Below are positions 1,051-56,485 of a stretch of 64,000 nucleotides of DNA, piece by piece. Within the stretch, counting starts at the first letter, position 1, and every line of letters starts with the position of its first letter. The position numbers and the translations under genes were made by a program. Below the pieces are notes generated by a model. That model was not told where the DNA came from. It saw only the letters and a list, made by a program, of their open reading frames with translations, and ran no database searches. This DNA comes from Candidatus Woesearchaeota archaeon (GTDB taxonomy: Archaea > Nanobdellota > Nanobdellia > Pacearchaeales > GW2011-AR1), in contig CAYHPN010000005.1 in NCBI GenBank assembly GCA_964358765.1, positions 13 through 64,012 of the forward strand, given 5' to 3'.

Positions 1051-1066
1051 ACGTAAGTAATTACCT

Positions 1067-12807: not shown

Positions 12808-13206
12808 ATGAGTTTAACTAGAAGATTAATGATTGGAACTTTATTATTTGCTGGTGCTTATTATTTAACGAATAATGTTTATGCTAATCCCATTGGTATT
12901 GGTGTTGAAGTTGACGATCATAAACCAACATGTGAAGAACAACTTAGTGAAGCTAGGCAATCATCTGATTTTTATGAAAAATTATATGGGGAGGAGGTCA
13001 TTGCATCTGACGCGAGATATAACAAAATGTTAACTGAGAAAGATAGTCAATTAAGACGTGCATATGGAATTGGAGCACTTGGTGTTATGGCTATAGGTTT
13101 AATATGCTTTCAACTTGGATGTAATGGAAGAAATTCTGAAGATCGAATAGAACCATTAGAAAATTCTACCGATGAAACAGTGTATCTGTTAGAACCGAAG
13201 GATTAA
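12808..13206 (+). CDS. hypothetical membrane-anchored protein
   Basis: ORF track (132 aa). N-terminal signal/anchor LMIGTLLFAGAYYL and a second TM GIGALGVMAIGLICF. Confidence 0.5.
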   Translation: MSLTRRLMIGTLLFAGAYYLTNNVYANPIGIGVEVDDHKPTCEEQLSEARQSSDFYEKLYGEEVIASDARYNKMLTEKDSQLRRAYGIGALGVMAIGLICFQLGCNGRNSEDRIEPLENSTDETVYLLEPKD

Positions 13207-15486: not shown

Positions 15487-15530
15487 TTTTTACCCTTTAT
15501 ATATAAAGTGTTTATACTTTATAAAATCAT

Positions 15531-18470: not shown

Positions 18471-19025
18471 TTATTTTATCTTTCCTGGAGCTGCGCCCCA
18501 AAGAGGGACTAGACCTTTAGATTTATCGCCTGAAGTATGTCCTCCTGAAACTATTGCGACAATAACTCCTATGAGAATGGCAATCATTACAACCCATCCT
18601 ATGAGCTGAGATGTATCAAAACTTCCCGCCATACCAAAATAACTTAGTGCATTGAATGTTTGAACTGAAATTATTATGAATATTAAACCTCCTAAAGAAA
18701 ATAGAATCCATCCAACTGTTGAGATAGATTGGTCTGGAATAAACATTCCAATTAATACTATTGCTGCAACAAGAATTGTTAAACCAACTGCTAGACGAGG
18801 AGATATTTCAGTAAGGAAATTTGAATAAAAGTCTAAACGAATAGAAAGCAGACCAAGGACAAGAGCTACAACGACTCTAGAAGCTTTTCCATTTTCTCCA
18901 AATATTTTTGTATATTCTAAAATTCCCCAGACTATTGCAAACATTAAAAGGAAAGGAAGGATATAAACAAAAAAACCTAAATCCTCTAATTGAAATAATA
19001 CATCAAGTATACTGCCCATTGCCAT
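18471..19025 (-). CDS. membrane protein, paralogue 2 of 3
   Basis: ILPFLLMFAIVWGILEYTKIFGENGK matches ILPFVLIFTIVFAVLQKSKIFGDGKK in 19347-19880. Polytopic. Confidence 0.6.
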   Translation of the reverse strand: MAMGSILDVLFQLEDLGFFVYILPFLLMFAIVWGILEYTKIFGENGKASRVVVALVLGLLSIRLDFYSNFLTEISPRLAVGLTILVAAIVLIGMFIPDQSISTVGWILFSLGGLIFIIISVQTFNALSYFGMAGSFDTSQLIGWVVMIAILIGVIVAIVSGGHTSGDKSKGLVPLWGAAPGKIK

Positions 19026-19173
19026 TATAAACCAAAGGAAATTTTATTTATAAAGATTTGCTTTTATAATTTTTTTTAATACTCGTTAAAATTCTCAAAC
19101 TTTAGCTAGAGTTTTTTATTGTTCGAATTTTCTCGGTAGTCACAAAACCCCCATGGTTTTATGACATTTTAAG

Positions 19174-19292
19174 ATAATGTCCTTTCAGGGCAGAGTGCTA
19201 AAGCACAGTTAGTAATTCATTCGAAAGCAAGTTTCTCATGAATTCTATTTTGGTCAAATTCACTTTGAACAAAATAACTATATTTCCATAGG
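19174..19292 (-). repeat. structured intergenic repeat, copy C (inverted orientation)
   Basis: The reverse complement aligns along its full length with 54344-54452. All four hairpins are present (TATTTTG/CAAAATA, GAATTCAT/ATGAATT, GTGC/GCAC, CC..GG). Confidence 0.7.
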
Positions 19293-19346
19293 AAATTATT
19301 TTCTTTATAATTTACTACATTTTAAAAAAAGAGGAATTAAAAATTA

Positions 19347-19880
19347 TTAATCTTTCTTTGAAGATTTAGTTTTACTGCTTGAAACTGTAACTGCAACTAT
19401 TGCCCCCACTATAATGGCAATGAAAATGATATTCATTAAAAGATTTGAATCTTCAGAAATGAAAAGCCAGTCATTTAGAGTTTGCCAAAAGTCAGTAACT
19501 ATAACTACTGCAATTATTACTGCTAAGACAGAACCTACAATTAAAACCCATTTAAGCCAGTTAGGAAAAGTCTTGAAAAATTCTCCTTCTGCTGAGAATG
19601 AACCTAAAAGAATTAGCAAAACTAGAATTATTACTAACGAGACAGCAAGGAAAGGGATTAACTGCAAAATAATTCCTGTTGCATTTCCAAAAGAAATTAC
19701 TATGAGTCCGAAAATTAAAGCGACTATAGCATCAATTTGTTTTTTTCCATCTCCAAAAATTTTAGACTTCTGCAACACTGCAAATACTATTGTGAATATT
19801 AATACGAATGGAAGGATAGTACCAACAAAAATTGGATGTGAAAGTATTGTCGGACCTCCTGCTGAAAAACTTCTCACCAT
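19347..19880 (-). CDS. membrane protein, paralogue 3 of 3
   Basis: See 18471-19025. 177 aa, polytopic, Lys/Ser-rich tail. Confidence 0.6.
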   Translation of the reverse strand: MVRSFSAGGPTILSHPIFVGTILPFVLIFTIVFAVLQKSKIFGDGKKQIDAIVALIFGLIVISFGNATGIILQLIPFLAVSLVIILVLLILLGSFSAEGEFFKTFPNWLKWVLIVGSVLAVIIAVVIVTDFWQTLNDWLFISEDSNLLMNIIFIAIIVGAIVAVTVSSSKTKSSKKD

Positions 19881-22986: not shown

Positions 22987-23625
22987 ATGAAACCTGAAGA
23001 GATGGCGCAGATACTTATTGGAGTTATAATGCTGTTTATTGTTTCTGGTGTTGAATATATCCTACTGGGGCAAATTGATATTCTTGTGCAAGTTATTCTG
23101 TTCTCATTTATTGTGATTTTTGTAGGAGTATTCACTAAAAAGTGGATGGCTTATATGTTTGACTCCAGTGTTGAACATAAGCTTTGGCATGTGTACAGAG
23201 TTGGATGGAGAGAGCATCAGCATTTCAAGAAGGAATTGCCTTTTGGAATTATTTTACCTTTAGTATTTTCTGCTTTTTCTTTAGGGGCTTTTAAACTTAT
23301 GACTTTCTTGACTTACGAAACAAAGGCTCTAAAGCATAGAGCTGCAAAAAGATTTGGCGCTTACAGTTTTACTGAGGTGACAGATTGGGACAATGGATTA
23401 GTAGGTGCTGCGGGAATTGTTGGGCTACTAGTTTTATCTATAATATCATATGTTCTGGGATATGAATTATTGTTTAAAATGTCAGCATATTACACTTTAA
23501 TGAACATGATTCCAATTTCTAATTTAGATGGGACGCAGATATTTTTTGGAAGCAGGATTGTTTGGAGTGTTTTAGCAGTGATTAGCTTGATATTTGGATT
23601 GTATGCTTTTGCGTTGATTATTTAG
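22987..23625 (+). CDS. M50 (site-2 protease)-like membrane protein lacking a canonical HExxH
   Basis: The C-terminal NMIPISNLDGTQIFF resembles the NxxPxxxLDG motif of the M50 family. No HExxH is visible (only VEHKLWH). Confidence 0.5.
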   Translation: MKPEEMAQILIGVIMLFIVSGVEYILLGQIDILVQVILFSFIVIFVGVFTKKWMAYMFDSSVEHKLWHVYRVGWREHQHFKKELPFGIILPLVFSAFSLGAFKLMTFLTYETKALKHRAAKRFGAYSFTEVTDWDNGLVGAAGIVGLLVLSIISYVLGYELLFKMSAYYTLMNMIPISNLDGTQIFFGSRIVWSVLAVISLIFGLYAFALII

Positions 23626-24023: not shown

Positions 24024-24241
24024 ATTGACCTCCTTTCATTATCGTAAATTAATATACGGTTAGAAGTTTATAAATATATTTAAAAAAATAAAGAGATTTC
24101 CTAAACCAAAACTATCCCCATAGTAAGCTGAGAGGTTATTACGTTGGAGTTTTTAAACGGAAATCTCTAATTGCCAAATTGGACGATATAACAGAACTGC
24201 AGGGTATTAAACCTAATTTGTCAATAAAAAAATTTGGGAAT

Positions 24242-26260: not shown

Positions 26261-26746
26261 ATGTATATGGGAAGAGATAAAAATAATCCGAGTATCGTCT
26301 ACATAAACTATCAAATAAGAAGTAATGGGAAAAAGATTAACATATTTGATAGAGTTAATCAGATAAAAAAGGACATCAAAGTATTGCTTCCAGAAATTGA
26401 GGACGATAAGTTAATCTCAATGTTCTCTCACATGAGAAGATATTACGAGGGTAAATTACATTATGGAAGAAGAACAAATCCAGAAAATTGGGATAAGAAA
26501 CAAGATTTAACCGAAGCTGAAAAATTAATCTATGACTATCTTCTAAAGAATAAATTGAATCCTTCTACAACTTATAGGTGGATGTTAACTTGCAGAGTGC
26601 CAGCAGACATCAAAAGCAAGCTCATAGAAGGCAGATTATCTTACAAGAAGGCTCTTCAGATAGCCTCAAATAGAAAGAGAGTAAGAGAAAGCAATACTGG
26701 GCTTTTAATGATGGAAGAAATAAACAACATCGTGAGGAGTTTATAA
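26261..26746 (+). CDS. conserved element protein (integrase-associated, unknown function)
   Basis: Homologous to 37378-37878 (shared IFD(R/K)VN(Q/E)IK, LNPSTTYRW, GL(L/I)MMEEI). The stop overlaps the integrase start (TAATG). Confidence 0.7.
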   Translation: MYMGRDKNNPSIVYINYQIRSNGKKINIFDRVNQIKKDIKVLLPEIEDDKLISMFSHMRRYYEGKLHYGRRTNPENWDKKQDLTEAEKLIYDYLLKNKLNPSTTYRWMLTCRVPADIKSKLIEGRLSYKKALQIASNRKRVRESNTGLLMMEEINNIVRSL

Positions 26747-27630
26747 TGGGAAATAAAAACAAACTGCCAGATAAATTAAGAAAAGAACAAATGGTGAAAT
26801 TATTTGAGGTGATGTATTTACCTAAATGTTCCATAGGTTGTTTTACTGCTTTAATGTGTGGATTACGAGTTAGAGAAGTTTGCAGACTTGAAACCTCAGA
26901 CATGAATTTAGAGGCAAGAGAAATCAAAGTAAGGGATAGTAAAAATCCCAACAGAAAGAAGCAACATGATTACGGCAAAGATAGAATTGTTCCAATTCCA
27001 GAAATAGCAGTCTCTCCGATAAAGAAATGGTTGGATGTTATTCAAGGTGGAAAATGGTTTTTGCCTTCAATGAAAAGCCCAGACATGCACCTAAGACCTA
27101 AAACATTGCATGAATGGTTTAGAGAAGCAAGGAAAAGAGCGGGTCTTGATGAAGTTGAATATGTTGTGAAATATAATAAGAAAACAAAGTATAGGGAATC
27201 AAGCCCAGTTTACAAATATAGATTTCATCATTTCAGGCATTTCTATGCTCAATATGTTTATGACCATACCAGAGACCTGTATGCTGTATCAAAGTTACTT
27301 GGGCACAACCAAATAACGACGACAGAAATTTATGCAAGGATGTCAGATAAAACAATGAAAGAAAGTGTTGACTTTAGTTTCAATAATCCAATAAGAACCA
27401 AAATCTTTGAGGATAATCCAGTTAATGCCTTGAATTATAAAATTCCTACAATCGCAAGACAAAGGGAGAAATCTCCGATAGAAATCCTTGAAGAAAGATT
27501 TGCCAGAGGCGAAATCTCCGACATAGACTTCCAGAATAAGCTGAGGCTTCTAAAGCTCAGAAAAGATTATCTGAAGGATAAGGATACTGAAGAGCTAAAG
27601 GAAAAAGAGATTGAAAATAGAGAAAATTGA
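26746..27630 (+). CDS. tyrosine recombinase/integrase
   Basis: Catalytic signature: GLRVREVCRLE (Arg I), HHFRHFYAQ (HxxR), LLGHNQITTTEIYARM (His...Tyr). Confidence 0.88.
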   Translation: MGNKNKLPDKLRKEQMVKLFEVMYLPKCSIGCFTALMCGLRVREVCRLETSDMNLEAREIKVRDSKNPNRKKQHDYGKDRIVPIPEIAVSPIKKWLDVIQGGKWFLPSMKSPDMHLRPKTLHEWFREARKRAGLDEVEYVVKYNKKTKYRESSPVYKYRFHHFRHFYAQYVYDHTRDLYAVSKLLGHNQITTTEIYARMSDKTMKESVDFSFNNPIRTKIFEDNPVNALNYKIPTIARQREKSPIEILEERFARGEISDIDFQNKLRLLKLRKDYLKDKDTEELKEKEIENREN

Positions 27631-31924: not shown

Positions 31925-32361
31925 TAATGGGTTAGGGGTGTCTGCTTTTTTGAATGTTTTCGAACTACCAAAATAATTCCCAATATCATGGGTATTGTTG
32001 GATTAATTCCTGCTGTGCATGTGTGTCTGCGTGTTAGCAGACAGGAGAGAGCCGAGAAAAAAATTCTCATCTTTGACGCTCTCCTCACCTTATCGAGGCT
32101 ATTTATAGAGGAGAACTAACAGTTTAAACCCCTTGCCCTATTCAACAAGAGACCTCTTTCTGAAAGCTGTCTGCCCCCAGTGTCTAATAAGTTGACCTCT
32201 GGAGGAAAAATAATATTTTGTCGAATGTAAATTCAGTTTTCTAAATCAAAATTGAAACAGGGTCAATGTCTGAAAATCTTCAGACAGGGAAAGTAGACAG
32301 CGATAGAGTATCCTCAAAGTGCGATACAAATCTTTTATACAAGAGGGACTAAAAGAATGGA
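31925..32361 (+). promoter_or_regulatory. conserved non-coding region with TGTCT(G/A) iterons, a hairpin and a TATA-like box
   Basis: Block-wise conserved with 39275-39731. Forward TGTCT(G/A) at 31939, 32024, 32168, 32181 and 32267. Reverse AGACA at 32037-32044, 32281-32287 and 32294-32300. Hairpin GTCTGC(32025)/GCAGAC(32037). ctatttatagagg with tttata at 32102-32107. Confidence 0.6.
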
Positions 32362-32853
32362 ATGGTAAAGACTTATGGAGCAGTAGATAGAAGACATAGA
32401 AAGAGAAGAAGTGATGCTGGAAGAAAGAGAAGAAGTTATAGGGGCAAACCTGTTAAAAAGAAAAGAGATATTCTCTGGCAAAAAAGAATCGGAGATAAAC
32501 AAACATTAAAACTATGGGTCTGGGAAAAGGGAACAATGTCTCGGGATGGAAGAAGTAAATGGAATAGAAGAATCAGACCTTTCATCAAACCAATAGTCTA
32601 CAGATTCAGAATGAGAATTGATGCTGATATTTCTTACCTAACTACTAAAGAAAAGATTGAACAATTCCTTTTAGATATAATTGAATATGATGGCGAGTTT
32701 CTTCTTATGGGTTTCAGCAATGCAAAAAATAGGTTTCATACTAAGCCAGTAAAAATTTGTAGAGTTGTTATATTCAATTCGAGAGAAGGACTTAGAGCCA
32801 GAATGATTCAAGATTACAGACTATGGAGATACTGGTTTTACAAAGGAGATTAA
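32362..32853 (+). CDS. conserved basic protein coupled to the serine recombinase (unknown function)
   Basis: Homologous to 39741-40226 (shared LKLWVW(E/Q)K(G/E)TMS, GRSKWNR, RPFIK, RMRIDA, SYLTTK, MGFSNA, KPVKICR, MIQDYRLWRYWFY). It ends 1 nt before the recombinase start. Confidence 0.7.
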   Translation: MVKTYGAVDRRHRKRRSDAGRKRRSYRGKPVKKKRDILWQKRIGDKQTLKLWVWEKGTMSRDGRSKWNRRIRPFIKPIVYRFRMRIDADISYLTTKEKIEQFLLDIIEYDGEFLLMGFSNAKNRFHTKPVKICRVVIFNSREGLRARMIQDYRLWRYWFYKGD

Positions 32854-32854
32854 A

Positions 32855-33613
32855 ATGGAATCTAAAACAAATTCACAAAGTGCAGTAGCTTATATTAGAT
32901 TATCTTCTGATGATAGTTCTAACCCTTCACTATCCCCTCAAAACCAACAAGACATTATAAGGAATCATGCAGAAGCCAAAGGACTAAACATAATTCAAAT
33001 ATATGAAGACATAAACAAGACTGGCTCTAACATCTTCAGAAAGGGGCTTGAACAATTAATGAAAGATGCAAGAGAAGGAAAATTCAATACAGTATTTATT
33101 AAGGACTGGTCAAGGCTCTCTCGAAACATCATAGACCAAGAAACAATAATCAAAGAGCTAAACAATCTCAAAATAGAAATAATCTCTTGCGATGGTATTG
33201 AAGACAAGAAAGCAAGACAGGTGACAGGACTAACAAATGAATGGTTTATTGATGAGTGCAAAAAGAAACAGCAACAAGTTCATAAGTTAAAACTGGAAGC
33301 AAAAATCCCTTGCTCCAGAGCCCCGTATGGATACTCTATGAGTAAGAAGCTAAAGAAATTTATCGTGAATCAAGAAGAAGCTCAGGATGTAAAAAAGATA
33401 TTTGAATTAAGAAGTGAAGGAAAATCAATCAGTGAAATAGCCCGAGAGTTTAAGATGTCTCCCAGTAAAGTTTTTGGAATACTAAGGAACAAGACTTATC
33501 TTGGTTTTATAAAATACAAGTCCGAATTAATTCAAGCCCATGAACCTATAATAACTGAAGAGATGTTCAGCAGGGTGAATAATAATTCAGTTTATTCATC
33601 TGGAAAAAAATAA
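32855..33613 (+). CDS. small serine recombinase (resolvase/invertase-type)
   Basis: Catalytic N-terminus AVAYIRLSSDDSSNPSLSPQNQ. HTH GKSISEIAREFKMSPSKVFGILRN. Long identical stretches with 40219-40962 (QIYEDINKTGSNIFRKGLEQLMKDA). Confidence 0.82.
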   Translation: MESKTNSQSAVAYIRLSSDDSSNPSLSPQNQQDIIRNHAEAKGLNIIQIYEDINKTGSNIFRKGLEQLMKDAREGKFNTVFIKDWSRLSRNIIDQETIIKELNNLKIEIISCDGIEDKKARQVTGLTNEWFIDECKKKQQQVHKLKLEAKIPCSRAPYGYSMSKKLKKFIVNQEEAQDVKKIFELRSEGKSISEIAREFKMSPSKVFGILRNKTYLGFIKYKSELIQAHEPIITEEMFSRVNNNSVYSSGKK

Positions 33614-37879: not shown

Positions 37880-38128
37880 ATGAAAAAAACAGAAATAAAC
37901 TCTCCTCGAGACATGATTACTTTTTTATGGTCAAAGAATGAAAGAGCCAATAAACAAATTCGCAAGTTAATACATCATACGGATGAAGTAAGAAAAATGG
38001 GATTCGAATTGTTTGATGAGAATACTAAAAAATATTATAGACGTCTGGTGGTTGATATGATTTGCTCAATAGAAAAGGCAAAACAGGAAATTCTTAAAAT
38101 TAAAGGGGAGCTTGATGGAGGAAAATAA
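37880..38128 (+). CDS. hypothetical small protein
   Basis: ORF track (82 aa), tightly packed between two element genes. Confidence 0.45.
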   Translation: MKKTEINSPRDMITFLWSKNERANKQIRKLIHHTDEVRKMGFELFDENTKKYYRRLVVDMICSIEKAKQEILKIKGELDGGK

Positions 38129-39236
38129 AATGGACAATATAAACACAAACAAAGATACAAACAAAATAATCGAAGAAATCAATAAGGTATTGAATAAACA
38201 AAGAATGCACTATAAAGAGATTTATGAACAATTAATCTCGGAAAAAGTTATTCCGCCTAATTCAGAAAAGGAGTTCAAAAATCTTTATGCATGGGCTTTA
38301 GAAATGGGATATATTGATAAGATGAGAATAAAAAACTGGGGCAAGAAAAGAGGAAAGCTCCCAAAGTATTTTACTAAGAAACAATTAATCCAAATATTTG
38401 ATGTTGCAGATAGACCTAAAGATGCGATTGCTTTTTTTCTTGCATTAATGTGTGGTTTGAGAATAAATGAAATCTGCACCCTAAAAATAAGGAATATTGA
38501 TTTTGAGAATCATAGACTCTTTATAGGGGACAGTAAAAATCCAAATAGGTCAAGAGATAATTATGGAAAAGATAGATATGTTGATTTTGACCCAGCAATA
38601 GAAGGAGTATTAAAGAAGTGGATTGAAATAATCGGAAACAGCAGTGAATGGTTTTTACCTTCAGATAAAAGTCCAGATATGCATTTAAGAAATAAATCTT
38701 TGCATGAAAGATTAAGATTATACCTAAAGGAAGCAGGGATTCTTCAAATAGATTATACAATGAAAGTTTCTCAAAGAGTAAGAGGAAAGAGAATCATAAA
38801 AACAGTGAACAGATACACAAGATATTTTCATTGCTTCAGACACACAATGGCTTGCATAATTTATAATAAAACTGGAGATATTTATGTTGTGAATAGATTT
38901 TTAGGACATAATCAATTAGATACGACCGCAGTTTATGCAAAAGTGATAGACACAAAGATGAAAACATCAATCGCAAGTGTATTTAATTCGCTTCATTATA
39001 ACTTTCATAATGGAGAGCATTTGCCAAATCCAAACCCCATCAAGAGCACCCTAACACAGTCATCTCCAGTAGTGGAAACTGTAGCCAACAGCCCGTTAGA
39101 TTTGTTAGGACTTCAGCTTGTTAATAATGAAATAAGTCAAGAAGAATATGTTAGAAAAAGAAAGCTTCTGGAGTCTGAAGGCTATAAACAAATCATTGAA
39201 ATAAAAGACTCAAGTGAAAATGAAAGGAAAAGATAA
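38115..39236 (+). CDS. tyrosine recombinase/integrase with N-terminal extension
   Basis: GLRINEICTLK, HCFRHTMACI, FLGHNQLDTTAVYAKV. The track start at 38112 is TTG, and the first ATG is at 38115. Confidence 0.86.
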   Translation: MEENKMDNINTNKDTNKIIEEINKVLNKQRMHYKEIYEQLISEKVIPPNSEKEFKNLYAWALEMGYIDKMRIKNWGKKRGKLPKYFTKKQLIQIFDVADRPKDAIAFFLALMCGLRINEICTLKIRNIDFENHRLFIGDSKNPNRSRDNYGKDRYVDFDPAIEGVLKKWIEIIGNSSEWFLPSDKSPDMHLRNKSLHERLRLYLKEAGILQIDYTMKVSQRVRGKRIIKTVNRYTRYFHCFRHTMACIIYNKTGDIYVVNRFLGHNQLDTTAVYAKVIDTKMKTSIASVFNSLHYNFHNGEHLPNPNPIKSTLTQSSPVVETVANSPLDLLGLQLVNNEISQEEYVRKRKLLESEGYKQIIEIKDSSENERKR

Positions 39237-39274: not shown

Positions 39275-39731
39275 ACTTGGTCTGCCTCAGGAAATGATGG
39301 GTGTCTGTATTTTAGATTGATTTTCAAATGGCAAATTAATTTTGAATAGGATGGGCATTGATTGATTTATTATTGCACTGCATGTGTGTCTGCGTGTAGG
39401 TAGACAGGAGAGAGCCGAGAAATAAATTCGTCATCTTTGATACTATCCTTACATTATCGACGCTATTTATAGAGGATAAACAACCTCCTTAGTATGATTA
39501 ACCCATTCAACAAGAGTCCTCTTTCTGAAAGCTGTCTACTCCCAATGTCTGGAAAAGATGACGACTGGAGGAAATATCATCTGATGGTTAAGTTTGTCGA
39601 ATGTAAAATTATCTGGCTAACTCGCCTTAGAGGAAAGTAGGGGGTGTCTAATAATTGGGAGGATTGGGAAGTAGACAAATTTTCTTCATTCCTAAAATCG
39701 CAATACAAGCCATATATACAAGGGGGTCTTT
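39275..39731 (+). promoter_or_regulatory. conserved non-coding iteron region (counterpart of 31925-32361)
   Basis: TGTCT(G/A) at 39302, 39387, 39533, 39546 and 39645. Reverse AGACA at 39401-39407 and 39672-39677. Hairpin GTCTGC(39388)/GTAGAC(39400), which keeps a G-T/U pair. tttata at 39466-39471. Confidence 0.6.
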
Positions 39732-39740
39732 TTGAATAGT

Positions 39741-40226
39741 ATGAAGACTGTTGGAGCAATTGATAAAAGGAAAAGAAGACAAAGAAGCGACTATGGAAAG
39801 AAGAGAGAGTTCTACAGAGGCAAACGTGTTAAAAAGAGAAGAGAAATAATCTGGAATAAAAAACAAGGACAGAAGGAAGTGTTGAAATTATGGGTGTGGC
39901 AAAAGGAAACAATGAGCCCCGAAGGGAGGTCTAAATGGAATAGGAAAGTTAGACCTTTCATTAAGAATATTGTTTACATCCCAAGAATGAGAATTGATGC
40001 CCATGTAAGTTATCTAACAACAAAGCAAAGTATAGAACAACTCTTTCTCGAAGTAATAGGTTACACTGGAGAGTTTTTAATTATGGGCTTCAGTAATGCA
40101 GGAAACAAATTCCATTGCAAACCTGTAAAGATTTGCAGAATTATTATTCACGAATCTAAAGAATGTCTTCGGAGCAGGATGATTCAAGATTACAGACTCT
40201 GGAGGTATTGGTTTTATCATGACTGA
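39741..40226 (+). CDS. conserved basic protein coupled to the serine recombinase
   Basis: The track start at 39732 is TTG. ATG 39741 gives MKTVGAIDKRKRRQRSD, parallel to MVKTYGAVDRRHRKRRSD of 32362. It overlaps the recombinase gene by 8 nt. Confidence 0.7.
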   Translation: MKTVGAIDKRKRRQRSDYGKKREFYRGKRVKKRREIIWNKKQGQKEVLKLWVWQKETMSPEGRSKWNRKVRPFIKNIVYIPRMRIDAHVSYLTTKQSIEQLFLEVIGYTGEFLIMGFSNAGNKFHCKPVKICRIIIHESKECLRSRMIQDYRLWRYWFYHD

Positions 40227-40962
40227 AAATGAATCTAAGATAATCAATGCAGTAGCCTATATTCGCTTATCTGCGGATGATAGTGCTAACCCTTCATTGT
40301 CTCCTCAAAACCAACAAGACATCATAAGGAGTCATGCAGAAGCTAAAGGATTAAAGATAGTTCAAATATATGAAGACATAAACAAGACAGGCTCAAATAT
40401 TTTTAGAAAGGGACTTGAGCAATTAATGAAAGATGCAAACTCCAAAAAATTCCAAGTTGTAATTTTTAAAGACTGGTCAAGAATCTCCAGAAGTATCGTA
40501 GACCAAGAGTCAATAGTAAAAGAATTGAACAGTATGGGGATTGAAGTAATTTCTTGTGATGGAGTCTCAGATAAAAAGATTAGGCAAGTAACGGGGCTTA
40601 CCAATGAATGGTTCATTGATGAGTGCAGGAGAAAACAACAGCAAGTTCACAAAATAAAGCTTGAAGCAAAAGTTCCATGTTCAAGACCCCCTTACGGATA
40701 TTCAATGAGCAAAAAACTAAAGCGTTTTGTTATTAATCCAGAAGAAGCTCAAGATGTTAAAAGAATCTTTGAATTAAGAAGTGAAGGAAAATCGATTAAC
40801 GAAATAGCCAAAGAGTATAAGATGTCTCCAAGTAAGATTTTTGGGATGCTTAAAAACCAAAGTTATCTGGGTTTCATAAAATACAAAACCGAACTAATCC
40901 CAGCCCATGAACTAATAATATCGCCAGAGCTTTTCAATAAACTGAATAATAATTCAGCCTAA
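40219..40962 (+). CDS. small serine recombinase
   Basis: AVAYIRLSADDSANPSLSPQNQ. HTH GKSINEIAKEYKMSPSKIFGMLKN. Confidence 0.82.
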   Translation: MTENESKIINAVAYIRLSADDSANPSLSPQNQQDIIRSHAEAKGLKIVQIYEDINKTGSNIFRKGLEQLMKDANSKKFQVVIFKDWSRISRSIVDQESIVKELNSMGIEVISCDGVSDKKIRQVTGLTNEWFIDECRRKQQQVHKIKLEAKVPCSRPPYGYSMSKKLKRFVINPEEAQDVKRIFELRSEGKSINEIAKEYKMSPSKIFGMLKNQSYLGFIKYKTELIPAHELIISPELFNKLNNNSA

Positions 40963-41147: not shown

Positions 41148-43892
41148 ATGGGATTAGAACTACACACACGAAATAATCTACTGGCAGATAAAGAAGAGGT
41201 TACATCGGATGAATATCTGGAAGTATACGGAAGTAGGATAGTCCAGGATAGCGAAAAATTGTTTTTGAAAGATTTTCTATTCCCTCTTCTTGGCAAGAAA
41301 GGGATGATTTATGTAATACCCCAATATCCATTTATTGATTCTGAGGGAAGATTAAGAAGAATTGATTTTGCGTTAATCAAAGACAACATAAAAATTGCTC
41401 TGGAAGTTAATGGAGAAACTTATCATGCTGAGGGAATAATTCCAAATGACATGTTCGATGATAACTTACAACGACAAAATGAGATATTAAATGCTGGATG
41501 GAATTTACAAAGATTTTCTTTCAATCAGTTACAAGATGACCGTTGGAGAAAAAGAGTCATGGATATGTTGCATAAAGTTGTCTCACGATATGCCCCAGAG
41601 ATAATTTCAGAAGATTCGATTAAACCTAATTATTTACAGGTTATGGCTTTAGAGGCACTTGATTTTTATCGAGAAAAAGGATGGAAAAAAGGTATTGTAG
41701 TTCTTCCTACAGGGACTGGAAAAACTTTTCTGTCTGCATTCGATGCTAAAAAGTTTGATGGTAGAGTATTGTTTATTGTCCATAGAATAGATATTTTAAG
41801 CCAGTCTAAGGATGCTTTTGAAAAAGTATGGGCACAAGCTAAACTGGGATTGCTAACAGGAGAGGTTAAAGAGCATCTTCATGATTCTAAAGTTTTATTC
41901 GCCTCTAAGGATAGCCTAAGAAATCCAGAATACCTCTCTTTATTTTCTCCGACAGAATTTGATTATATAATTATAGATGAGGTTCATCATGGACAAGCTC
42001 CCTCTTATCAGTCGATTATTAAACATTTTCAGCCAAGAAAATTCATTCTTGGGATGACGGCAACACCTGATAGGATGGATAGAAAAGATATATTTGAATT
42101 ATTTGATTACAATAAGGTTTTTGAGTATACTTTAAATGATGCTATTGAAAATGGATTCTTAGTTCCCTATACTTATTATGGTCTAAAGGATAATATAGAT
42201 TATTCCAAAATAAGATATAATGGTCTGAAATATAATGTGCAAGACTTGGACAAGTATCTCATTATAGAAAAAAGAAATGAGCAAATTCTGAAGGAATATA
42301 TTGAGAAAGGGGGAGGAAATAAAGCATTAGGTTTCTGTTGTTCTATTCATCATGCAAATAAAATGGCACAGTATTTTAATGAGCATGGGATTCCTGCTAT
42401 AGCAATAACTTCTGAAACAGAAAATAGGGAAGACAAGATTAAGGATTTTAGAGACAATAAATATGCAGTTGCTTTCACTGTAGACATATTTAACGAGGGA
42501 ATTGATTTTCCAGACCTAAGAGTTCTATTATTTATAAGACCTACAGAATCGAAGACGGTTTTTATGCAACAATTAGGTAGGGGACTAAGATTGTCTCCAG
42601 GAAAAGAGAGGGCAATTGTTTTAGATTTTATTACAAATTATAAAAAAGCTAATCAGATTAGAAAATATCTTTCTAAAAGAAGTAAAGAAAAAAAAGCCAC
42701 TTCAGGAAGAATAGAGAAGATTATTTACGAGTATGTTCCAAAATGTGAAGTTCATTTTGATTCAGAAGTAGAAGAAATATTAAATAGGCAAGATAAAGAT
42801 GAAAGAGAAATCTCAAAAGAAGACTTATTAGATTCGTATTATTCTCTCGCTGAAAAACTTGGAAGAAAACCAACACAAGAGGACATCAATGAGCAAGGGG
42901 AATTTAAGGTCTCAAAATATATCTCTATTTATGGCTCATGGATTAAGTTTCTTCGTGAAATTGGAGAGTTCACAGAAGCAAGTTATCATTATCCTCAAGG
43001 AGTCCATTTAGGACATATCTTCTATATACTAAAAACTCTGTCAGAAAATAAACGGGAGAAAACACACTTAGATGATTCATACATTAGAATTAGAGGTAAT
43101 CTCGGTTCAGATAGAGTAGGCACATTTCAAAGACAAACTAAATATAAATTGCAAGCTTTAATGGAAATGGGTCTCATAACGGATGATAGAACACTTAGCT
43201 CCGATGAAAAATATAATATAGAATTAACTCCTGAAGGGAAAGAGCTCTATAGAATTTTGAAACCTCTAATCGGAAAAGTTGATTTATCTTTCTCAAAAAA
43301 TGAAGGAGGAATACCTTCATGGGACATGAAATTAAATCCACAAGAATTTAATGTTGCACTCTGGAATTTTGTTCAATCAGATAAAACAAAAAAAGAATAT
43401 ATCCAAAGAGAAATATTAGAAATTCATGCAGTTTCGCAAATGTTAAACTATTTATATAAAATTGAAAGGCAAAAGACAATAAAAAAATCTTCTGTATATG
43501 AGGGATTTTTTAAAGCACCATTTGTTAAAATGTATTGTGACCAAAATGGCATAGATATTGCGACAGAGGAAGGGGCGAAACATAGATGTCCCTTTTTGTT
43601 GAATTTGCTGGAATCAATAGGAGTTTTATCTCAGACAAGAAGTGAAATTATTTTGTCGAAATTTTTAGTATGTAAACAGACTATGCAAATTTATTCCAAA
43701 GAAAGTGAGGGAAACATTAGTGATAGGATTCACAGAGTCGGCAAGATTCTGTCAGCAAAATCATCCGATAAATTAGACTCCGAAGAAGAATCATTACTCA
43801 AGGAGAATTTTGGGAAGTTATTCTTATCAGATAAATTTTATTTATCGGACTTTGAGATTTTAAATAATAGCGGTGATAAAAATGTCAAATAA
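41148..43892 (+). CDS. DUF559/Vsr-like endonuclease domain fused to an SF2 (type III restriction Res-like) helicase, with a ~350-aa C-terminal region
   Basis: Nuclease-like RRIDFAL...IALEVNGETYH...NAGWNLQRF. Helicase motifs I VLPTGTGKT, II IIDEVHH, III GMTATP, VI QQLGRGLR. 914 aa. Confidence 0.75.
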   Translation: MGLELHTRNNLLADKEEVTSDEYLEVYGSRIVQDSEKLFLKDFLFPLLGKKGMIYVIPQYPFIDSEGRLRRIDFALIKDNIKIALEVNGETYHAEGIIPNDMFDDNLQRQNEILNAGWNLQRFSFNQLQDDRWRKRVMDMLHKVVSRYAPEIISEDSIKPNYLQVMALEALDFYREKGWKKGIVVLPTGTGKTFLSAFDAKKFDGRVLFIVHRIDILSQSKDAFEKVWAQAKLGLLTGEVKEHLHDSKVLFASKDSLRNPEYLSLFSPTEFDYIIIDEVHHGQAPSYQSIIKHFQPRKFILGMTATPDRMDRKDIFELFDYNKVFEYTLNDAIENGFLVPYTYYGLKDNIDYSKIRYNGLKYNVQDLDKYLIIEKRNEQILKEYIEKGGGNKALGFCCSIHHANKMAQYFNEHGIPAIAITSETENREDKIKDFRDNKYAVAFTVDIFNEGIDFPDLRVLLFIRPTESKTVFMQQLGRGLRLSPGKERAIVLDFITNYKKANQIRKYLSKRSKEKKATSGRIEKIIYEYVPKCEVHFDSEVEEILNRQDKDEREISKEDLLDSYYSLAEKLGRKPTQEDINEQGEFKVSKYISIYGSWIKFLREIGEFTEASYHYPQGVHLGHIFYILKTLSENKREKTHLDDSYIRIRGNLGSDRVGTFQRQTKYKLQALMEMGLITDDRTLSSDEKYNIELTPEGKELYRILKPLIGKVDLSFSKNEGGIPSWDMKLNPQEFNVALWNFVQSDKTKKEYIQREILEIHAVSQMLNYLYKIERQKTIKKSSVYEGFFKAPFVKMYCDQNGIDIATEEGAKHRCPFLLNLLESIGVLSQTRSEIILSKFLVCKQTMQIYSKESEGNISDRIHRVGKILSAKSSDKLDSEEESLLKENFGKLFLSDKFYLSDFEILNNSGDKNVK

Positions 43893-44835
43893 ATCACATT
43901 TTAACGCAGGACATAGAGGCATGAATTTTTTGAAGAAAAAAGGGATAAAACATAGTTCTAATATTGATTTCGTAATTCCTGAAAAAACTTATCATGGATT
44001 TTTTATTAAAGACTCTATACAGTTTTTAAAAACACTTCCAGACTCATCTGTGCAGTTGGTATTAATTGACCCCCCGTATAATTTAGATTTGGAGACGTGG
44101 GATACTTTTTCAGATTATTTAGATTGGGCAAAACAATGGATGGATGAAATATATCGAGTATTAAAAGATTCTGGAAGCTGTGTTATTTTTGGAGGATTTC
44201 AATACCAAGATTTAAAGAAAGGCGATTTATTAGAACTTTTACATTATGCTCGACATAAAACTAAACTAAGATTTACAAATTTAGTTATTTGGTATTATAA
44301 GAATGGTATGAGTGCACATAGATTTTTTGCTAATCGTCATGAAGAGGCAGTATGGTTGACAAAAACAAAACAATATTATTTTGATTTAGATTCAGTTAGA
44401 GCACCGTATTCGGAAGAAGCTAAAAAATCGGCACTTCGGGATAAAAGACTTGTTCCTGAAAATATTGAAAAAGGAAAAAATCCTACCAATGTCTGGGAGA
44501 TTGGTAGGTTAAATGGTAATTCTGTTGAAAGAGTTGGACACCCCACTCAAAAACCATTGGAGATTATAAGAAGATTTGTTAATAGCCTTTCTTATCCTGG
44601 CTCAATAGTATTGGATTTTTTTGCAGGTTCTGGAACAACAGGAAGAATTTGCATAGAAGAGGGTCGCCATAGCATACTTGTAGACAATGACCCCAAATCA
44701 TTAGATTTTTTCAATAAACATTTGAATAATATGAAATCGACAGGGGATATAAAGTCCCATGAGGTTTTTATCAATCCAGATTTAAATGATTTATTAAAAA
44801 AATTGGAAGAAAAAGAAAGTATCCAAAAGAATTAA
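43882..44835 (+). CDS. DNA methyltransferase, beta-class (N6-adenine or N4-cytosine)
   Basis: Catalytic motif IV LIDPPYNL precedes AdoMet motif I VLDFFAGSGTTG. The track start at 43873 is GTG and the first ATG is at 43882. It overlaps the upstream gene. Confidence 0.82.
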   Translation: MSNKSHFNAGHRGMNFLKKKGIKHSSNIDFVIPEKTYHGFFIKDSIQFLKTLPDSSVQLVLIDPPYNLDLETWDTFSDYLDWAKQWMDEIYRVLKDSGSCVIFGGFQYQDLKKGDLLELLHYARHKTKLRFTNLVIWYYKNGMSAHRFFANRHEEAVWLTKTKQYYFDLDSVRAPYSEEAKKSALRDKRLVPENIEKGKNPTNVWEIGRLNGNSVERVGHPTQKPLEIIRRFVNSLSYPGSIVLDFFAGSGTTGRICIEEGRHSILVDNDPKSLDFFNKHLNNMKSTGDIKSHEVFINPDLNDLLKKLEEKESIQKN

Positions 44836-44841
44836 TAAACA

Positions 44842-45528
44842 ATGATAAAACAAAAAGAAGTGGCAATCGAACAGAAAGGTTATAAGTTATCACCATCAAC
44901 ATTGAACTTAATGCATGAGTGTCCTCGATGTTTTTGGTTATCTGAACATGATGTATGGAAAAGACCAAACGGAATATTCCCCTCGCTTCCTTCTGGGATG
45001 GATGGTGTTTTAAAAAAACATTTTGATAAGTTTATGGAAAAAGGAAAACTTCCTCCCGAGTTATGTGATAATTCTGAATGTAAAAACCTTAAACTATTTG
45101 ATGATAAGGAGCTCTTGAAAGAATGGAGAAACTCCAGAAAAGGATTATGGTTTGAAGATAAAGAAGGGAATATTTTACATGGAGGAATTGATAATCTGAT
45201 GGTCAATAAGACTAATGGTAAATTTATTGTCCTTGACTACAAAACAAGGGGATTTCCATTAAAAGAAGATACACATGAACACTATCAAAGTCAGCTTAAT
45301 ATCTATGTTTGGCTTCTTGAGAAGTTAGGACATAAGACTGAAAACTTTGCATATTTGTTATTTTATCATCCTAAAGAAGTGTTAGAGACTGGAGAAGTTG
45401 TTTTTAATACAGATTTAAAGAAAATGAAAATCTCGCCTGAAGATGCAGAAAAGCTTTTCAATAATGCAATTAAAATGCTTAATGAAGACTGCCCAAAAAA
45501 ATCATGCTGTTGGTGTGAGAAGGTATAA
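44842..45528 (+). CDS. PD-(D/E)XK nuclease, Cas4/RecB-like, with Cys cluster
   Basis: N-terminal CPRCFW. Core GIDNL...VLDYKT. QSQLNIYVWLL (QxxxY). C-terminal CPKKSCCWC. Confidence 0.65.
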   Translation: MIKQKEVAIEQKGYKLSPSTLNLMHECPRCFWLSEHDVWKRPNGIFPSLPSGMDGVLKKHFDKFMEKGKLPPELCDNSECKNLKLFDDKELLKEWRNSRKGLWFEDKEGNILHGGIDNLMVNKTNGKFIVLDYKTRGFPLKEDTHEHYQSQLNIYVWLLEKLGHKTENFAYLLFYHPKEVLETGEVVFNTDLKKMKISPEDAEKLFNNAIKMLNEDCPKKSCCWCEKV

Positions 45529-53058: not shown

Positions 53059-54117
53059 GTGTTTATTGTTGCGATGTCAATAACACATACTTTTATTGAT
53101 TTTATTCCTTCGATATTTTTGGGTGCTCCGAGCGAGGATAGTTTCTTGGCGGTACTTCCTGGACATAGGATGTTGATCCAAGGTAAAGGGATGGAAGCAG
53201 TTGTTTTAACTTTGTATGGGGGATTATTCGGATTGCTTTTTGTTTTATTATTTAGTTTATTATTTGCAAAAACATTACCTTATTTTTTTGGATTTATTGA
53301 AGGAGTAATACCTTTTATTTTAATTTTTGTTTCTTTATATTTAATATTTAAAGAAGATAAAATATTAAATGGATTCATAGTTTTTATATTAACAGGATTT
53401 TTAGGATATTTTACTTTTAATTTACCTGTTCGCGAACCTTTACTGCCACTACTTTCTGGATTATTTGGAGTTAGTGGACTTATTGTAAGCTTGAAGAGCA
53501 AGGTAAAAATACCTACACAAAGAGAAATTAAATTTAGGGAGGTAAATATAGATAAATCATTTTTTAGGGCAGGAGTAGGGGCCATTATATCTGCCCCATT
53601 ATGTTCGTTTTTGCCAGGAATCGGAAGCGGACATGCTGGAATAATTGGCAGTGAAATAATCGGAAAAAACAACGAAGAGGGAAGACTATTTTTATTTATG
53701 GTTGGTGCAATAAGTGTTATTGTAATGTCTTTTTCTTTTGTTACAGCTTACGCTATTGGAAAGACAAGGACAGGAAGCGCTGCTGTTGCACAGGAAATAC
53801 TTGGAGAAATAAGTGGAGTGAATTTAATTATAATATTATTTAGTATATTAATTAGCGGGATTATTGCATTTTTTGTAGGGGTTAAACTTGCTGGTATTTT
53901 TTCAAGGAATATAAATAAAATCGATTATGAGAAGATATCTATCGGAATTATTGTTTTGTTAATTGTTGTTAATTTAGTATTGAGTAATTGGATTGGACTT
54001 GTTGTTTTGATTAGCGGGAGTACTCTAGGAGTTTATTGTATTTTATCAGGAACAAGGAGGATAAATTTAATGGGGTGCTTGCTTGCGCCTAGTATTGTTT
54101 ATTATCTTGCCGGGTAA
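53059..54117 (+). CDS. TctA/DUF112-family membrane protein, 5'-truncated by element integration
   Basis: Polytopic protein. The second-half motif FLPGIGSGHAGIIG mirrors the N-terminal LFPGIHINL, which lies in frame upstream (frame open from 52954; no ATG there; the track start at 53059 is GTG). Confidence 0.65.
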   Translation: MFIVAMSITHTFIDFIPSIFLGAPSEDSFLAVLPGHRMLIQGKGMEAVVLTLYGGLFGLLFVLLFSLLFAKTLPYFFGFIEGVIPFILIFVSLYLIFKEDKILNGFIVFILTGFLGYFTFNLPVREPLLPLLSGLFGVSGLIVSLKSKVKIPTQREIKFREVNIDKSFFRAGVGAIISAPLCSFLPGIGSGHAGIIGSEIIGKNNEEGRLFLFMVGAISVIVMSFSFVTAYAIGKTRTGSAAVAQEILGEISGVNLIIILFSILISGIIAFFVGVKLAGIFSRNINKIDYEKISIGIIVLLIVVNLVLSNWIGLVVLISGSTLGVYCILSGTRRINLMGCLLAPSIVYYLAG

Positions 54118-54193
54118 TTAATTTTAAGGTTTTTCAATTTTATACTTTAAATTAATTATTTGCATATAAAGTTTAATAACTTTATTGTTAGAT

Positions 54194-54304
54194 AGTTATT
54201 TTGATTGAAGTAAATTCAGCCAAAATAAGAATTTATGAGAAATTTATTTTCGAATAAATTACTTTCTGTGCGTTAGCACCTTAACTGCCCGCAAGGGTAT
54301 TAAC
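54194..54304 (+). repeat. structured intergenic repeat, copy A
   Basis: Hairpins TTATTTTG/CAAAATAA, AATTTAT/ATAAATT, GTGC-gtta-GCAC and CCC-gcaa-GGG. It aligns with copies B, C and D. Confidence 0.7.
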
Positions 54305-54343
54305 TTGTTTTCAATATATGGTAAATTATAATAAAAATAATCT

Positions 54344-54452
54344 CCTATGGAAATTTTAGTTATTTTGTTCAAAGTAAATTTGCCCCAAATAAGAATTTAG
54401 ACGAGATTTACTCTTGGCTAAATTACAAAGCGTGCATTTGCACCCTGTCTAC
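54344..54452 (+). repeat. structured intergenic repeat, copy B (tandem to copy A)
   Basis: It begins cctatggaaat as in copy C. Hairpin 2 is AATTTAG/CTAAATT (compensatory relative to copy A). GTGC-attt-GCAC. CCCT-gtctaca-AGGG. Confidence 0.7.
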
Positions 54453-54459
54453 AAGGGCA

Positions 54460-54837
54460 TTATTTTAATGAATGAGACTGCCATATGATTATAAATAATT
54501 GAACAAGACAAACTAAGAGCGTGCCAAACAAAAGAGGGATTAAGTAAATAATTAAAAAGTTATTTTGAAGATAATAGTTTTTATCAAAAAACATTAATAA
54601 TAAACATAAAGGTATTACAAAAGTTAAGAATAACAAACATATTTGGAAAATAAAAGATATTTTTCTAAGACTTAAGTTTTTTGTTAATTTTCTTACTACT
54701 GAGAAAATTACAAAACCAATATTCCAAGGCATAAATATAGAAATCATTATTGTAATTATAAATATCATAAGCGAATATACAATTAGAGACGAAATATCCG
54801 GTCCATAATATCTAGGCAATATATCTAAAAATATCAT
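54460..54837 (-). CDS. hypothetical polytopic membrane protein
   Basis: ORF track (125 aa). 4-nt overlap with the upstream gene 54834-56264. Confidence 0.5.
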   Translation of the reverse strand: MIFLDILPRYYGPDISSLIVYSLMIFIITIMISIFMPWNIGFVIFSVVRKLTKNLSLRKISFIFQICLLFLTFVIPLCLLLMFFDKNYYLQNNFLIIYLIPLLFGTLLVCLVQLFIIIWQSHSLK

Positions 54838-56413: not shown

Positions 56414-56485
56414 GGCCTTGTGGTTCAATGGTTAGAACATGCCTTTGACGTGGGCGAGACCGCAGTTCAATTCTGCGCAGGGCCA
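56414..56485 (+). tRNA. tRNA-Val: tRNA-Val (anticodon GAC)
   Basis: Manual fold: acceptor GGCCTTG/CAGGGCC, D stem GTTC/GAAC, anticodon stem TGCCT/GGGCG with loop TTGACGT, T arm CGCAG-TTCAATT-CTGCG, discriminator A. CCA is not encoded. Confidence 0.85.

Follow-up and report, generated by a model that had tools for sequence, protein, structure and literature searches.

In bacteria and archaea, families of sibling small RNAs (sRNAs) such as Qrr, LhrC, PrrF1/2 and OmrA/B comprise several paralogous RNA genes of about 100 nt, some of them in direct tandem, in which each copy has its own promoter and a hairpin or U-rich end, and in which conserved modules go along with neutral variation among the siblings. 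The same holds for the repeat family described here, with transcription being a prediction in this case. The family was found in a 64,000-nt stretch of DNA (the window, i.e. the whole stretch analysed) of a Pacearchaeales archaeon from the Hainich groundwater well H43, and its units contain four successive hairpins (H1 to H4). The main differences from the sibling sRNA families are the number of copies, which is at least 19, the near-identity of copies at unrelated loci, the occurrence of truncated relics, the lack of an evident seed or target, and the host, which is a DPANN archaeon. The genomes of DPANN archaea are tiny, and hardly any of their non-coding RNAs have been characterised; we know of no sRNA family described for them, and a literature search on structured repeats or sRNA families of DPANN archaea or Pacearchaeota found none that is relevant. 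As far as we know and this search shows, no such family has been described in this lineage. We regard it as a new family of a known kind, i.e. of multicopy structured sRNA genes or of structured intergenic repeats, with strong support for the structure. With moderate confidence we take the units to be self-contained sRNA genes, which would be independently transcribed into structured RNAs.

The second group of described systems that come close are dispersed repeats. ERIC elements (127 nt), the pneumococcal BOX elements with their modular A, B and C parts, and REP/BIME elements are, like the present units, dispersed intergenic hairpin units of 100-160 bp, and they share with them the mosaic modules, the insertions at fixed sites, the truncated copies, the patchy distribution, and compensatory changes that suggest a constraint at the RNA level. 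However, these bacterial elements are imperfect palindromes or have complementary ends, they carry no promoters of their own, and REPs have only ~35 nt and are associated with RAYT transposases, whereas the present units consist of four different hairpins in a row, show no end complementarity, and have a TATA box at promoter distance. REP/BIME palindromes are imperfect, measure ~20-40 nt, and often stand in inverted clusters, with REPs on both sides of a RAYT (Y1 transposase) gene. In the present family, the hairpins are intergenic, but what is clustered is the whole 160-bp unit with its four hairpins, in direct tandem, and no Y1 transposase was found among the open reading frames (ORFs) scanned in the window and on the element-bearing contigs (about 125 kb). 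IS200/IS605-derived PATEs and omega/reRNAs, which are common in archaea, resemble the family in lacking terminal inverted repeats and target duplications, in being hairpin-rich and strand-asymmetric, and in their sharp 3' boundary. By the features compared, a derivative of this type was rejected, as leader palindrome and H4 are unrelated to each other, the left flanks have no common motif such as a conserved 4-5-nt target 5' of the unit, the ORFs scanned on these ~125 kb include no TnpA, TnpB or IscB, and Rfam gave no match. MITEs (miniature inverted-repeat transposable elements), including the Sulfolobus SM elements, are likewise small, non-coding, multicopy and intergenic, with copies at contig ends, but they form one long inverted repeat and not a chain of local hairpins. 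A MITE is ruled out by missing terminal inverted repeats, as the unit ends TAATTATTTGYATATAAAG... and ...GGCATTAWCTTG are not complementary, and by missing target-site duplications, as no direct repeat was found at the boundaries in the flanks of 18 copies. The left end ATTATTTG is weakly similar to the 3' tail ATTATCTTG, but in AT-rich DNA such a resemblance does not convince.

In the window, there are exactly four copies of the repeat (A to D), which were found alike by two covariance models (R1, built from six full copies, and R2, built from sixteen) and by an nhmmer profile. Neither the models, of which R2 scanned the whole window with filters off, nor the profile gave a fifth significant match. 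A degenerate 26-nt core, TAGTTRTTTTGNTYRAAGTRAATTYR, matches these four sites only, where shuffles let expect 0.01 matches. The original prediction had named four alignable intergenic copies, two of them in tandem, and all are found where it had placed them, alignable over about 110 nt. Its size of ~110 nt is about right for the core, but the full unit, as judged from BLAST boundaries between contigs, is larger, with ~156-160 bp that consist of a leader of 40-48 bp and a core of ~115 nt with H1 to H4 and a U-rich tail. The units, again by their BLAST boundaries, and their cores, each with its two covariance scores, are as follows.

54153-54308, plus strand: unit A
54309-54469, plus strand: unit B
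19171-19328, minus strand: unit C
15496 to ~15625, plus strand: unit D
54193-54307, plus strand: predicted RNA core of copy A (129.8 and 122.6 bits; also fold and covariation)
54196-54228, plus strand: H1 of copy A, with loop GUAAA
54230-54260, plus strand: H2 of copy A
54268-54280, plus strand: H3 of copy A
54282-54302, plus strand: H4 of copy A, followed by the tail AACUUG
54357-54467, plus strand: predicted RNA core of copy B, with four hairpins (86.7 and 103.2 bits)
19170-19280, minus strand: predicted RNA core of copy C, a mosaic (98.5 and 107.4 bits; also alignment)
15530 to ~15625, plus strand: truncated core of copy D (49.8 and 61.5 bits; also sequence)

Units A and B abut directly, since A ends at 54308 and B starts at 54309, and the 3' end of the core of copy B overlaps by 8 nt with the stop codon of the convergent ORF 54460-54837. 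Two further stretches that had been considered possible fragments did not hold up: 183-225 gave a non-significant nhmmer E-value of 1.9, and 24190-24215 was supported neither by the covariance models nor by nhmmer. The former stretch has GCAC(C)TTAACTGCCC in common with copy A, and the overlapping positions 143-217 (plus strand; AAATTCTAAAATCTGGGAGCACTTAACTGCCC...GCAAAGATTAACTTTG), which match the H3/H4 junction of copy A at 14/15 nt, might be a decayed 3' half of a copy, at the same non-significant E-value.

The core starts with 5'-UAG, continues with H1, one unpaired nucleotide, H2, a linker AC-N5, H3 and H4, and ends with the tail WCUUG. H1 has an 8-bp lower stem (UUAUUUUG/CAAAAUAA), which is conserved in sequence and not merely in pairing, a 2x2 internal loop with a conserved U and C, a 4-bp upper stem, and the 5-nt loop GURAA. 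In H2, the lower stem has 7 bp and the upper stem 4 bp, with a 2x2 loop between them, and the terminal loop of 5 nt reads UUUAC in most cases; its 2x2 loop is a tandem G·A in subtype 1 that is absent in subtype 2 (the subtypes are those of the leaders, see below), and it comes without a 3-nt bulge. H3 has 4 bp (GUGC/GCAC or AUGC/GCAU), and H4 has 8 bp with a bulge, UAA-(bulge)-UGCCC/GGGCA-UUA. Each of the hairpins described before can thus be read in the sequence, but H1 and H2 are longer than had been thought, and H4 is the bulged 8-bp helix. It had also been claimed that all copies keep the hairpin series, which is correct for A, B and C and not for D, in which H1 and H2 are intact, H3 is degenerate, H4 is absent, and a run of seven T follows.

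Folding of single sequences gives modest z-scores, with -3.7 in case of A and about -1.6 in case of B and C. The strong evidence for this structure comes from the comparison of copies and not from folding energy. In a model-guided alignment of 16 sequences, 15 of them distinct and including the divergent locus L027 (see below), standard pairs occupy 96.0% of the cells at the 35 pairs of H1 to H4. Double changes are found at 15 of these pairs (42 cells), several pairs occur with three or four pair types, and none of 500 shuffles reached any of the five measures. If the 3' partners are slid by 1-3 columns, pairing falls to 36-51%, and RNAalifold, to which the structure was not supplied, predicts H1, H2 and H4, with covariation at 13 of 28 pairs. 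The base pairs are hence kept by compensatory substitutions, as is expected of a structured RNA, in an alignment that was fitted by the covariance model and among copies that are recombining paralogues, so that the cells are not independent events. The original prediction that the structure is under selection is well borne out by these data, and more strongly than would have been possible with four copies; the covariation test as well as the covariance-model scan that it had suggested were both positive, the latter by finding further copies in the metagenome.

The pairs also carry information about the strand. G·U pairs outnumber A·C mismatches by 23 to 6, in every helix for which they were counted (H1 5/2, H2 7/1, H4 11/2), and the pairing therefore matters on the strand as given. 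Such a bias fits an RNA, or single-stranded DNA of the given strand, and speaks against a symmetric duplex signal. It is the first of the points that make a palindromic protein-binding site or a cruciform without any RNA function quite improbable, since G·U (or G·T) should not prevail if both strands were equal. Moreover, the compensatory changes preserve pairing and not the sequence of half-sites, variation in the H1 loop is confined to the R position of a GNR(N)A fold, and a chain of four different hairpins would be an atypical binding site. A DNA signal could in principle account for the sequence conservation in the lower stem of H1, for the palindromes in the leaders, and for the fact that H2 has the architecture of H1 read on the opposite strand, with a complementary loop, so that AAGTAAATT and AATTTACTT form an inverted repeat. 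Of the three options offered originally, i.e. an sRNA family, a MITE/REP-like element and a DNA cruciform, the pure cruciform is the least likely, a REP-like selfish repeat comes second, and an sRNA family is favoured because of the G·U excess on the given strand, the TATA box at promoter distance and the hairpin with a U-rich 3' end.

In the H1 loop, only GUAAA and GUGAA were seen, and the loop is otherwise invariant, which we take to be the behaviour of a GNR(N)A-type pentaloop. The R-only variation, which would suit a GNRA-like pentaloop that serves for docking of a protein or an RNA, presumably has a parallel in the N-binding boxB pentaloops of lambda and P22, an analogy of this single motif, as there is neither an N-like protein nor an antitermination context here. 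With its sequence UUUAC, the H2 loop is complementary to the H1 loop, with in-register pairing in 91% of the cells as compared to 23-53% when slid, and a loop-loop (kissing) contact of H1 and H2 is therefore possible. A guide-like hypervariable segment was not found in the alignment, in which the linker and H3 vary mildly at most.

If the units are sRNA genes, they should carry their own promoters, with BRE (TFB recognition element) and TATA box some 25-30 nt upstream of the 5' end, and the leaders are of special interest in this respect. There are two main subtypes. Subtype 1 (A and D) has the form TAATTATTTGYATATAAAGTT-N5-AACTTTAT-N7 and is conserved among subtype-1 copies on unrelated contigs, and subtype 2 (B and C) has the form TCAATATAATGTAAATTATAA-N8-ATTTCC-ATT-GGAAATA.

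54153-54192, plus strand: leader of copy A, subtype 1, with TATA-like ATATAAAG at 54164-54171, 29 nt before TAGTT
54309-54356, plus strand: leader of copy B, subtype 2, with TATA-like AAATTATAATAA at about 54323-54334 and the palindrome TCTCC-TAT-GGAAA
19281-19328, minus strand: leader of copy C, also of subtype 2, in which TTATAAAG precedes TAGTT by about 30 nt; its palindrome is ATTTCC-TAT-GGAAAT
15496-15529, plus strand: leader of copy D, subtype 1, with ATATAAAG at 15501-15508

A TATA-like box is found 29-30 nt before TAGTT in 15 of 18 copies inside and outside the window. In at least 11 of the 23 protein genes of the window, a TTTAWAWA-like box starts 29-30 nt before the ATG, which suggests that the mRNAs of this organism are largely leaderless, and the spacing in the repeat units equals the TATA-to-ATG spacing of these leaderless genes. 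The box position is common to three leader types that cannot be aligned with each other, i.e. subtype 1 with ATATAAAG, subtype 2 with TTATAACG or TTATAAAG, and the leader of the outside copy L036b with TATTTAAA. In copy A, the box overlaps the palindrome ATAAAGTT-N5-AACTTTAT, and where two units stand in tandem, the leader of the downstream one begins exactly at the TATA box. At its 3' end, the unit has the G+C-rich H4 followed by AUUAWCUUG and often by more U residues. The intact outside copies L022 and L035a/b are antisense to both neighbouring genes and could thus be expressed only from a promoter of their own. From these signals we infer a primary transcript of ~112-118 nt that starts at or next to UAGUU. 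A scan for sigma-70 promoters and terminators was uninformative, as these are bacterial signals and the host is archaeal.

As to promoters in general, the box of the protein genes is usually preceded by AAAnnC (e.g. ORFs 18471-19025, 19347-19880, 12808-13206, 22987-23625 and 41148-43892), and in case of the tRNA-Val gene (56414-56485) it starts 38 nt before the mature 5' end. On the minus strand, the 3' arm of the leader palindrome of copy D (TTTTATAAAGT, 15510-15530) coincides with the site that is occupied in relatives by the TATA box of the divergent gene for the FlaI-like ATPase (13213-15486), and the insertion of copy D may now supply or overlap the promoter of that gene.

Could the units be cis-acting parts of mRNAs instead, e.g. 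riboswitches or thermometers in 5' untranslated regions (UTRs), or terminators or stability elements in 3' UTRs? The H4 hairpin with its U-rich tail is indeed terminator-like, units fill short intergenic gaps, and six of the loci (C, D, L019, L034a, L027 and L036b) lie upstream of a gene on the same strand. However, 11 of 17 copies point at the 3' end of a convergent gene, sometimes with the 8-nt stop-codon overlap described for copy B, and such copies cannot be 5' leaders; by these orientation statistics, a 5'-UTR riboswitch was ruled out. The neighbours are unrelated housekeeping genes without a common function, namely for a TctA-like permease, DUF2330, the FlaI-like ATPase, RtcB, UDP-glucose dehydrogenase, HD and HAD hydrolases, rhomboid, SpoIIM, GARS, SMC, a P-type ATPase, exonuclease VII and ThyX, and this, together with the frequent convergent orientation, makes a 5'-UTR element a poor fit. 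Furthermore, a tandem duplication and a TATA box in each unit would be surprising in UTR elements, some copies run antisense to the genes on both sides, and mRNAs that appear to be leaderless leave little place for such elements. A cis-acting function is therefore in our view unlikely, albeit marginally less so than a pure DNA signal.

Outside the window, a metagenome scan gave 39 loci, and the true copies among them are all on H43 assemblies except for one JGI contig, L027. Once the loci that are identical to the window had been removed, there remained at least 15 other distinct copies (L010, L012/L021, L018a, L018b, L019, L022, L024, L029a, L029b, L034a, L034b, L035a, L035b, L036b and L037). 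The unit thereby recurs at at least 19 unrelated intergenic loci, with about twenty copies in total, all of which, inside and outside the window, are intergenic. The ~150-160-bp unit is the only sequence that the element-bearing contigs have in common with the window or with each other. L027 belongs to another, Pacearchaeota-like archaeon and has two divergent tandem copies in which the structure is kept. Tandems exist at three places, with A followed by B, L035a by L035b, and L027b by L027a. Module mixing is evident in copy C, which combines a subtype-2 leader and H1 with a subtype-1-like H2, and in L035a, which combines H1 and H2 of subtype 2 with subtype-1-like H3 and H4, and it points to recombination among copies. 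In L021 (1696-1757) and L024 (1981-2042), the 3' arm of H2 is interrupted by a 62-nt two-hairpin insertion with TA..TA on its flanks and with ends that are imperfectly inverted (GACAATTCTG / CAGAATTCTC); no other example was found in the DNA fetched for the analysis, and the insertion may be a nested, tiny MITE-like insertion or a structural expansion.

The distribution is patchy. Five relatives with 73-83% protein identity in the FlaI orthologue (contigs L048-L053, L058 and L059) contain no copies in ~107 kb around that gene, with the limitation that models built from narrow seeds could miss distant relatives. In L048, the gap syntenic to copy C contains unrelated sequence and no element, and the promoter of the downstream gene is conserved. 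In ~36 kb from relatives of L027, chosen by RNase HII homologues of 81-82% identity (L060-L062), no copies were found save a 22.7-bit mini-match in L060. Long hairpins with GURAA loops are not enriched in the relatives, with 2 found and 1 expected. A pattern scan of GTDB species genomes gave 7 matches, which are all due to chance and lie in coding DNA of Psychroserpens and others (the Woesearchaeote match, L007, is coding as well), none of 4 pattern matches in viral contigs fitted the covariance model, and phage and plasmid collections gave no match or 48-bit noise. The weak L060 match (529-599, or 521-589 by another delimitation; GCA_902385625.1, uncultured archaeon; E = 0.04) is a mini-version that combines AAUAAUAGUUAUUUU, an H1-like hairpin with AAGUAAAU and a second hairpin, UUACUGGC-GAA-GCCAAUUA, which is H4-like. 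The ATG of a DEAD-box helicase gene follows it directly, and the match may reflect either a distant relationship to the family or chance.

This distribution raises the question of a selfish, non-autonomous structured repeat of REP/BIME, ERIC or BOX type, which would be spread by a trans-acting enzyme or by recombination. Its hairpins would be kept for a mobilisation as single-stranded DNA, or they would be tolerated or even useful in read-through transcripts as terminators or stabilisers of mRNA 3' ends, and the TATA-like box would be incidental. Near-identical copies with unrelated flanks (L029b/L035b 99%, A/L010 96%) are what one would expect of such a repeat, as are the truncated or degenerate copies (D, L034b, L037 and L036b), the nested insertion, the mosaic modules and direct tandems, the absence from the relatives, with the element missing at the syntenic site of copy C in L048, and the scattering among housekeeping genes, often at convergent gene ends. 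Moreover, 7 of 13 contigs end inside a copy, which is a signature of repeats that break assemblies, and a read-through would be possible, as the identified upstream neighbour is on the same strand in 10 of 15 copies. On the other hand, the family has neither terminal inverted repeats nor target duplications nor a conserved flanking target motif, its end hairpins differ from each other unlike those of IS200/IS605, and the ORFs scanned in the window and on the element-bearing contigs (about 125 kb) yielded no transposase, RAYT, TnpB or reverse transcriptase; the integrases and serine recombinases of the window, at 26-41 kb, are far from the copies. An incidental TATA-like box would also hardly be placed at the exact promoter distance in three unrelated leader types, and intact copies that are antisense to both neighbours as well as the structure kept in the divergent lineage of L027 do not fit well either. 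We consider a purely selfish repeat possible, though not probable.

Known RNA families were compared as well. With Rfam 15, the whole window gave only the tRNA-Val at the gathering threshold, and in region 54100-54520 at E-values up to 10, all matches were far below threshold, the best being rliB with 18.5 bits as compared to a threshold of 40, so that the Rfam search that had been recommended matched no family. The absence of C/D boxes and terminal inverted repeats, as noted originally, was confirmed. A box C/D sRNA is rejected, as the 15-sequence alignment has no conserved boxes of type C (RUGAUGA) or D (CUGA) and the tandem G·A of H2 forms no kink-turn. An H/ACA sRNA is not compatible with internal loops of 2x2 nt that offer no pocket and with the lack of a conserved ACA (copy C alone has GGACAUUA). 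A 5S rRNA is dismissed by the absence of a helix that closes the 5' and 3' ends, by the many divergent copies and by the lack of an Rfam match, and a hammerhead-like core in H2 (UAUGAG...CGAA) is not kept in subtype 2.

A protein-coding function has little in its favour, too. In subtype 1, there is an ATG frame, MRNL(L/F)SNKLL..., with a few synonymous differences, and the dispersed and tandem arrangement resembles that of the Sib/Ibs or Ldr loci of E. coli, which in principle could suggest a small-protein or type-I toxin-antitoxin-like repeat. However, the 13-aa frame of subtype 1 loses its ATG in subtype 2, so that it is no conserved small ORF; the subtype-2 copies B, L029a, L035a and L018b as well as copy D have no start codon and nevertheless keep hairpins, the frame varies from 7 to 24 aa, the peptide is not hydrophobic, and the opposite strand has no conserved ORF. 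The absence of an ORF in half of the intact copies argues strongly against this explanation, which we regard as extremely improbable.

A second repeat family, termed X, is related to the one described above.

Window 952-1068, plus strand: copy of family X
L021 935-1045, minus strand: copy of family X
L029 4213-4328, plus strand: copy of family X

Family X has about 115 nt with sharp ends (GTATC...AATTACC), and its copies are 75-77% identical and have unrelated flanks. It consists of a hairpin Xa and a hairpin of 12-14 bp, with compensatory changes in both, and the longer one shares its apex, TGAAGTAAATTCA, with H1 of the main family. Ahead of it stands GGAAUAAUAGCUAU, a sequence similar to the subtype-2 junction, and the copy of family X in the window reaches 22.9 bits (E = 0.05) with the main covariance model. 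The window copy also overlaps a 66-aa ORF (851-1050), which is probably spurious.

How could the units function as sRNA genes? The archaeal RNA polymerase would start at or next to TAGTT, 29-30 nt after the start of the TATA box as in case of leaderless mRNAs, and would stop at or just after the tail AUUAWCUUG. Palindromes between TATA box and start may serve as subtype-specific, operator-like sites, and the two leader subtypes with their different palindromes would then give rise to differently regulated isoforms. The weakest step of the proposal would be that the RNA works in trans as a protein-binding or ribonucleoprotein scaffold, in which the constant H1, with its invariant lower stem, its U/C internal loop and its GURAA loop, could be the docking module, and in which the H2 loop UUUAC and the H1 loop might contact each other. 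As the copies differ by neutral-looking changes and have no variable guide, they would rather provide dosage or differently regulated isoforms than address different targets. To new loci, the units could have spread by a duplication at the DNA level that carries the promoter along, with mosaics arising afterwards by recombination between copies. The best reading of the family as a whole is that it is young and lineage-specific and was recently amplified in one Pacearchaeota lineage, possibly selfishly.

Several points speak against sRNA genes of this kind. Start, end and even transcription itself are inferred from the DNA, and TATA-like octamers are common in DNA of 30% GC. The subtype-1 box lacks the A-rich BRE that is found before most gene promoters, i.e. 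the BRE is weak. The subtype-1 palindrome over the TATA box changes compensatorily, with one pair being G-C, C-G or A-T among the copies, and the degenerate copy L034b has an insertion of ~60 nt within this palindrome, both of which fit a hairpin of the element better than a spacing-sensitive promoter. Many of the compensatory cells may trace back to a few ancestral hairpin alleles that were shuffled by recombination, and the complementarity of H1 and H2 loops shows zero covariation. Moreover, twenty near-redundant genes for one RNA would be odd in a reduced genome, and near-identical dispersed copies, truncations, contig breaks and the absence from relatives are equally typical of selfish repeats. 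It should be considered, though, that sRNA genes and selfish repeats are compatible, as a self-amplifying RNA gene that carries its promoter would satisfy both. Such a self-propagating sRNA gene would be an archaeal analogue of a short interspersed element (SINE) with an external TATA promoter, amplified by a mechanism that leaves neither inverted repeats nor target duplications, and its RNA, with the constant, GNRA-like H1 module that it shares with family X, would partner a protein specific to these Pacearchaeota; in this full form, the idea is speculative and has in our estimate a rather small chance of being correct.

Some other features of the analysed DNA may be mentioned. The recombinase region of the window contains tyrosine integrases (26746-27630 and 38112-39236) and serine recombinases (32855-33613 and 40219-40962), the latter inside two paralogous segments of ~1.7 kb (31936-33613 and 39299-40962) that are 70-88% identical and each have an ORF of ~163 aa. 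The region at 26-41 kb probably holds integrated mobile elements. It is followed at 41148-45528 by a row of genes whose products have 914, 320 and 228 aa and are, in this order, a ResIII/SNF2 helicase that has an HNH-associated repeat, an N6/N4 DNA methylase, and a nuclease of the PD-(D/E)XK type; the row looks like a defence or restriction module. LAGLIDADG inteins interrupt RtcB on the element-bearing contig L022 (62-2845, minus strand), and they occur also in several homologues of the FlaI-like ATPase from related Nanoarchaeota (P0042, P0109 and P0120).

An RNA of ~115 nt with strong covariation and about twenty promoter-equipped copies, none of which occurs in close relatives, would readily lend itself as a candidate when new families are added to Rfam, and it would represent a rare case of a rapid expansion of sRNA genes or structured repeats in a reduced archaeal genome. 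For the lineage, the comparison yields a usable promoter rule, according to which leaderless genes have the start of their TATA box 29-30 nt before the ATG, and the repeats explain the assembly breaks of this organism. If the copies are mobile, they would serve as markers for strain typing and as a lead to the mechanism of mobilisation. Should the units propagate themselves in the manner of SINEs, DPANN archaea would have in them an RNA-protein system or a mobile element of a new kind.

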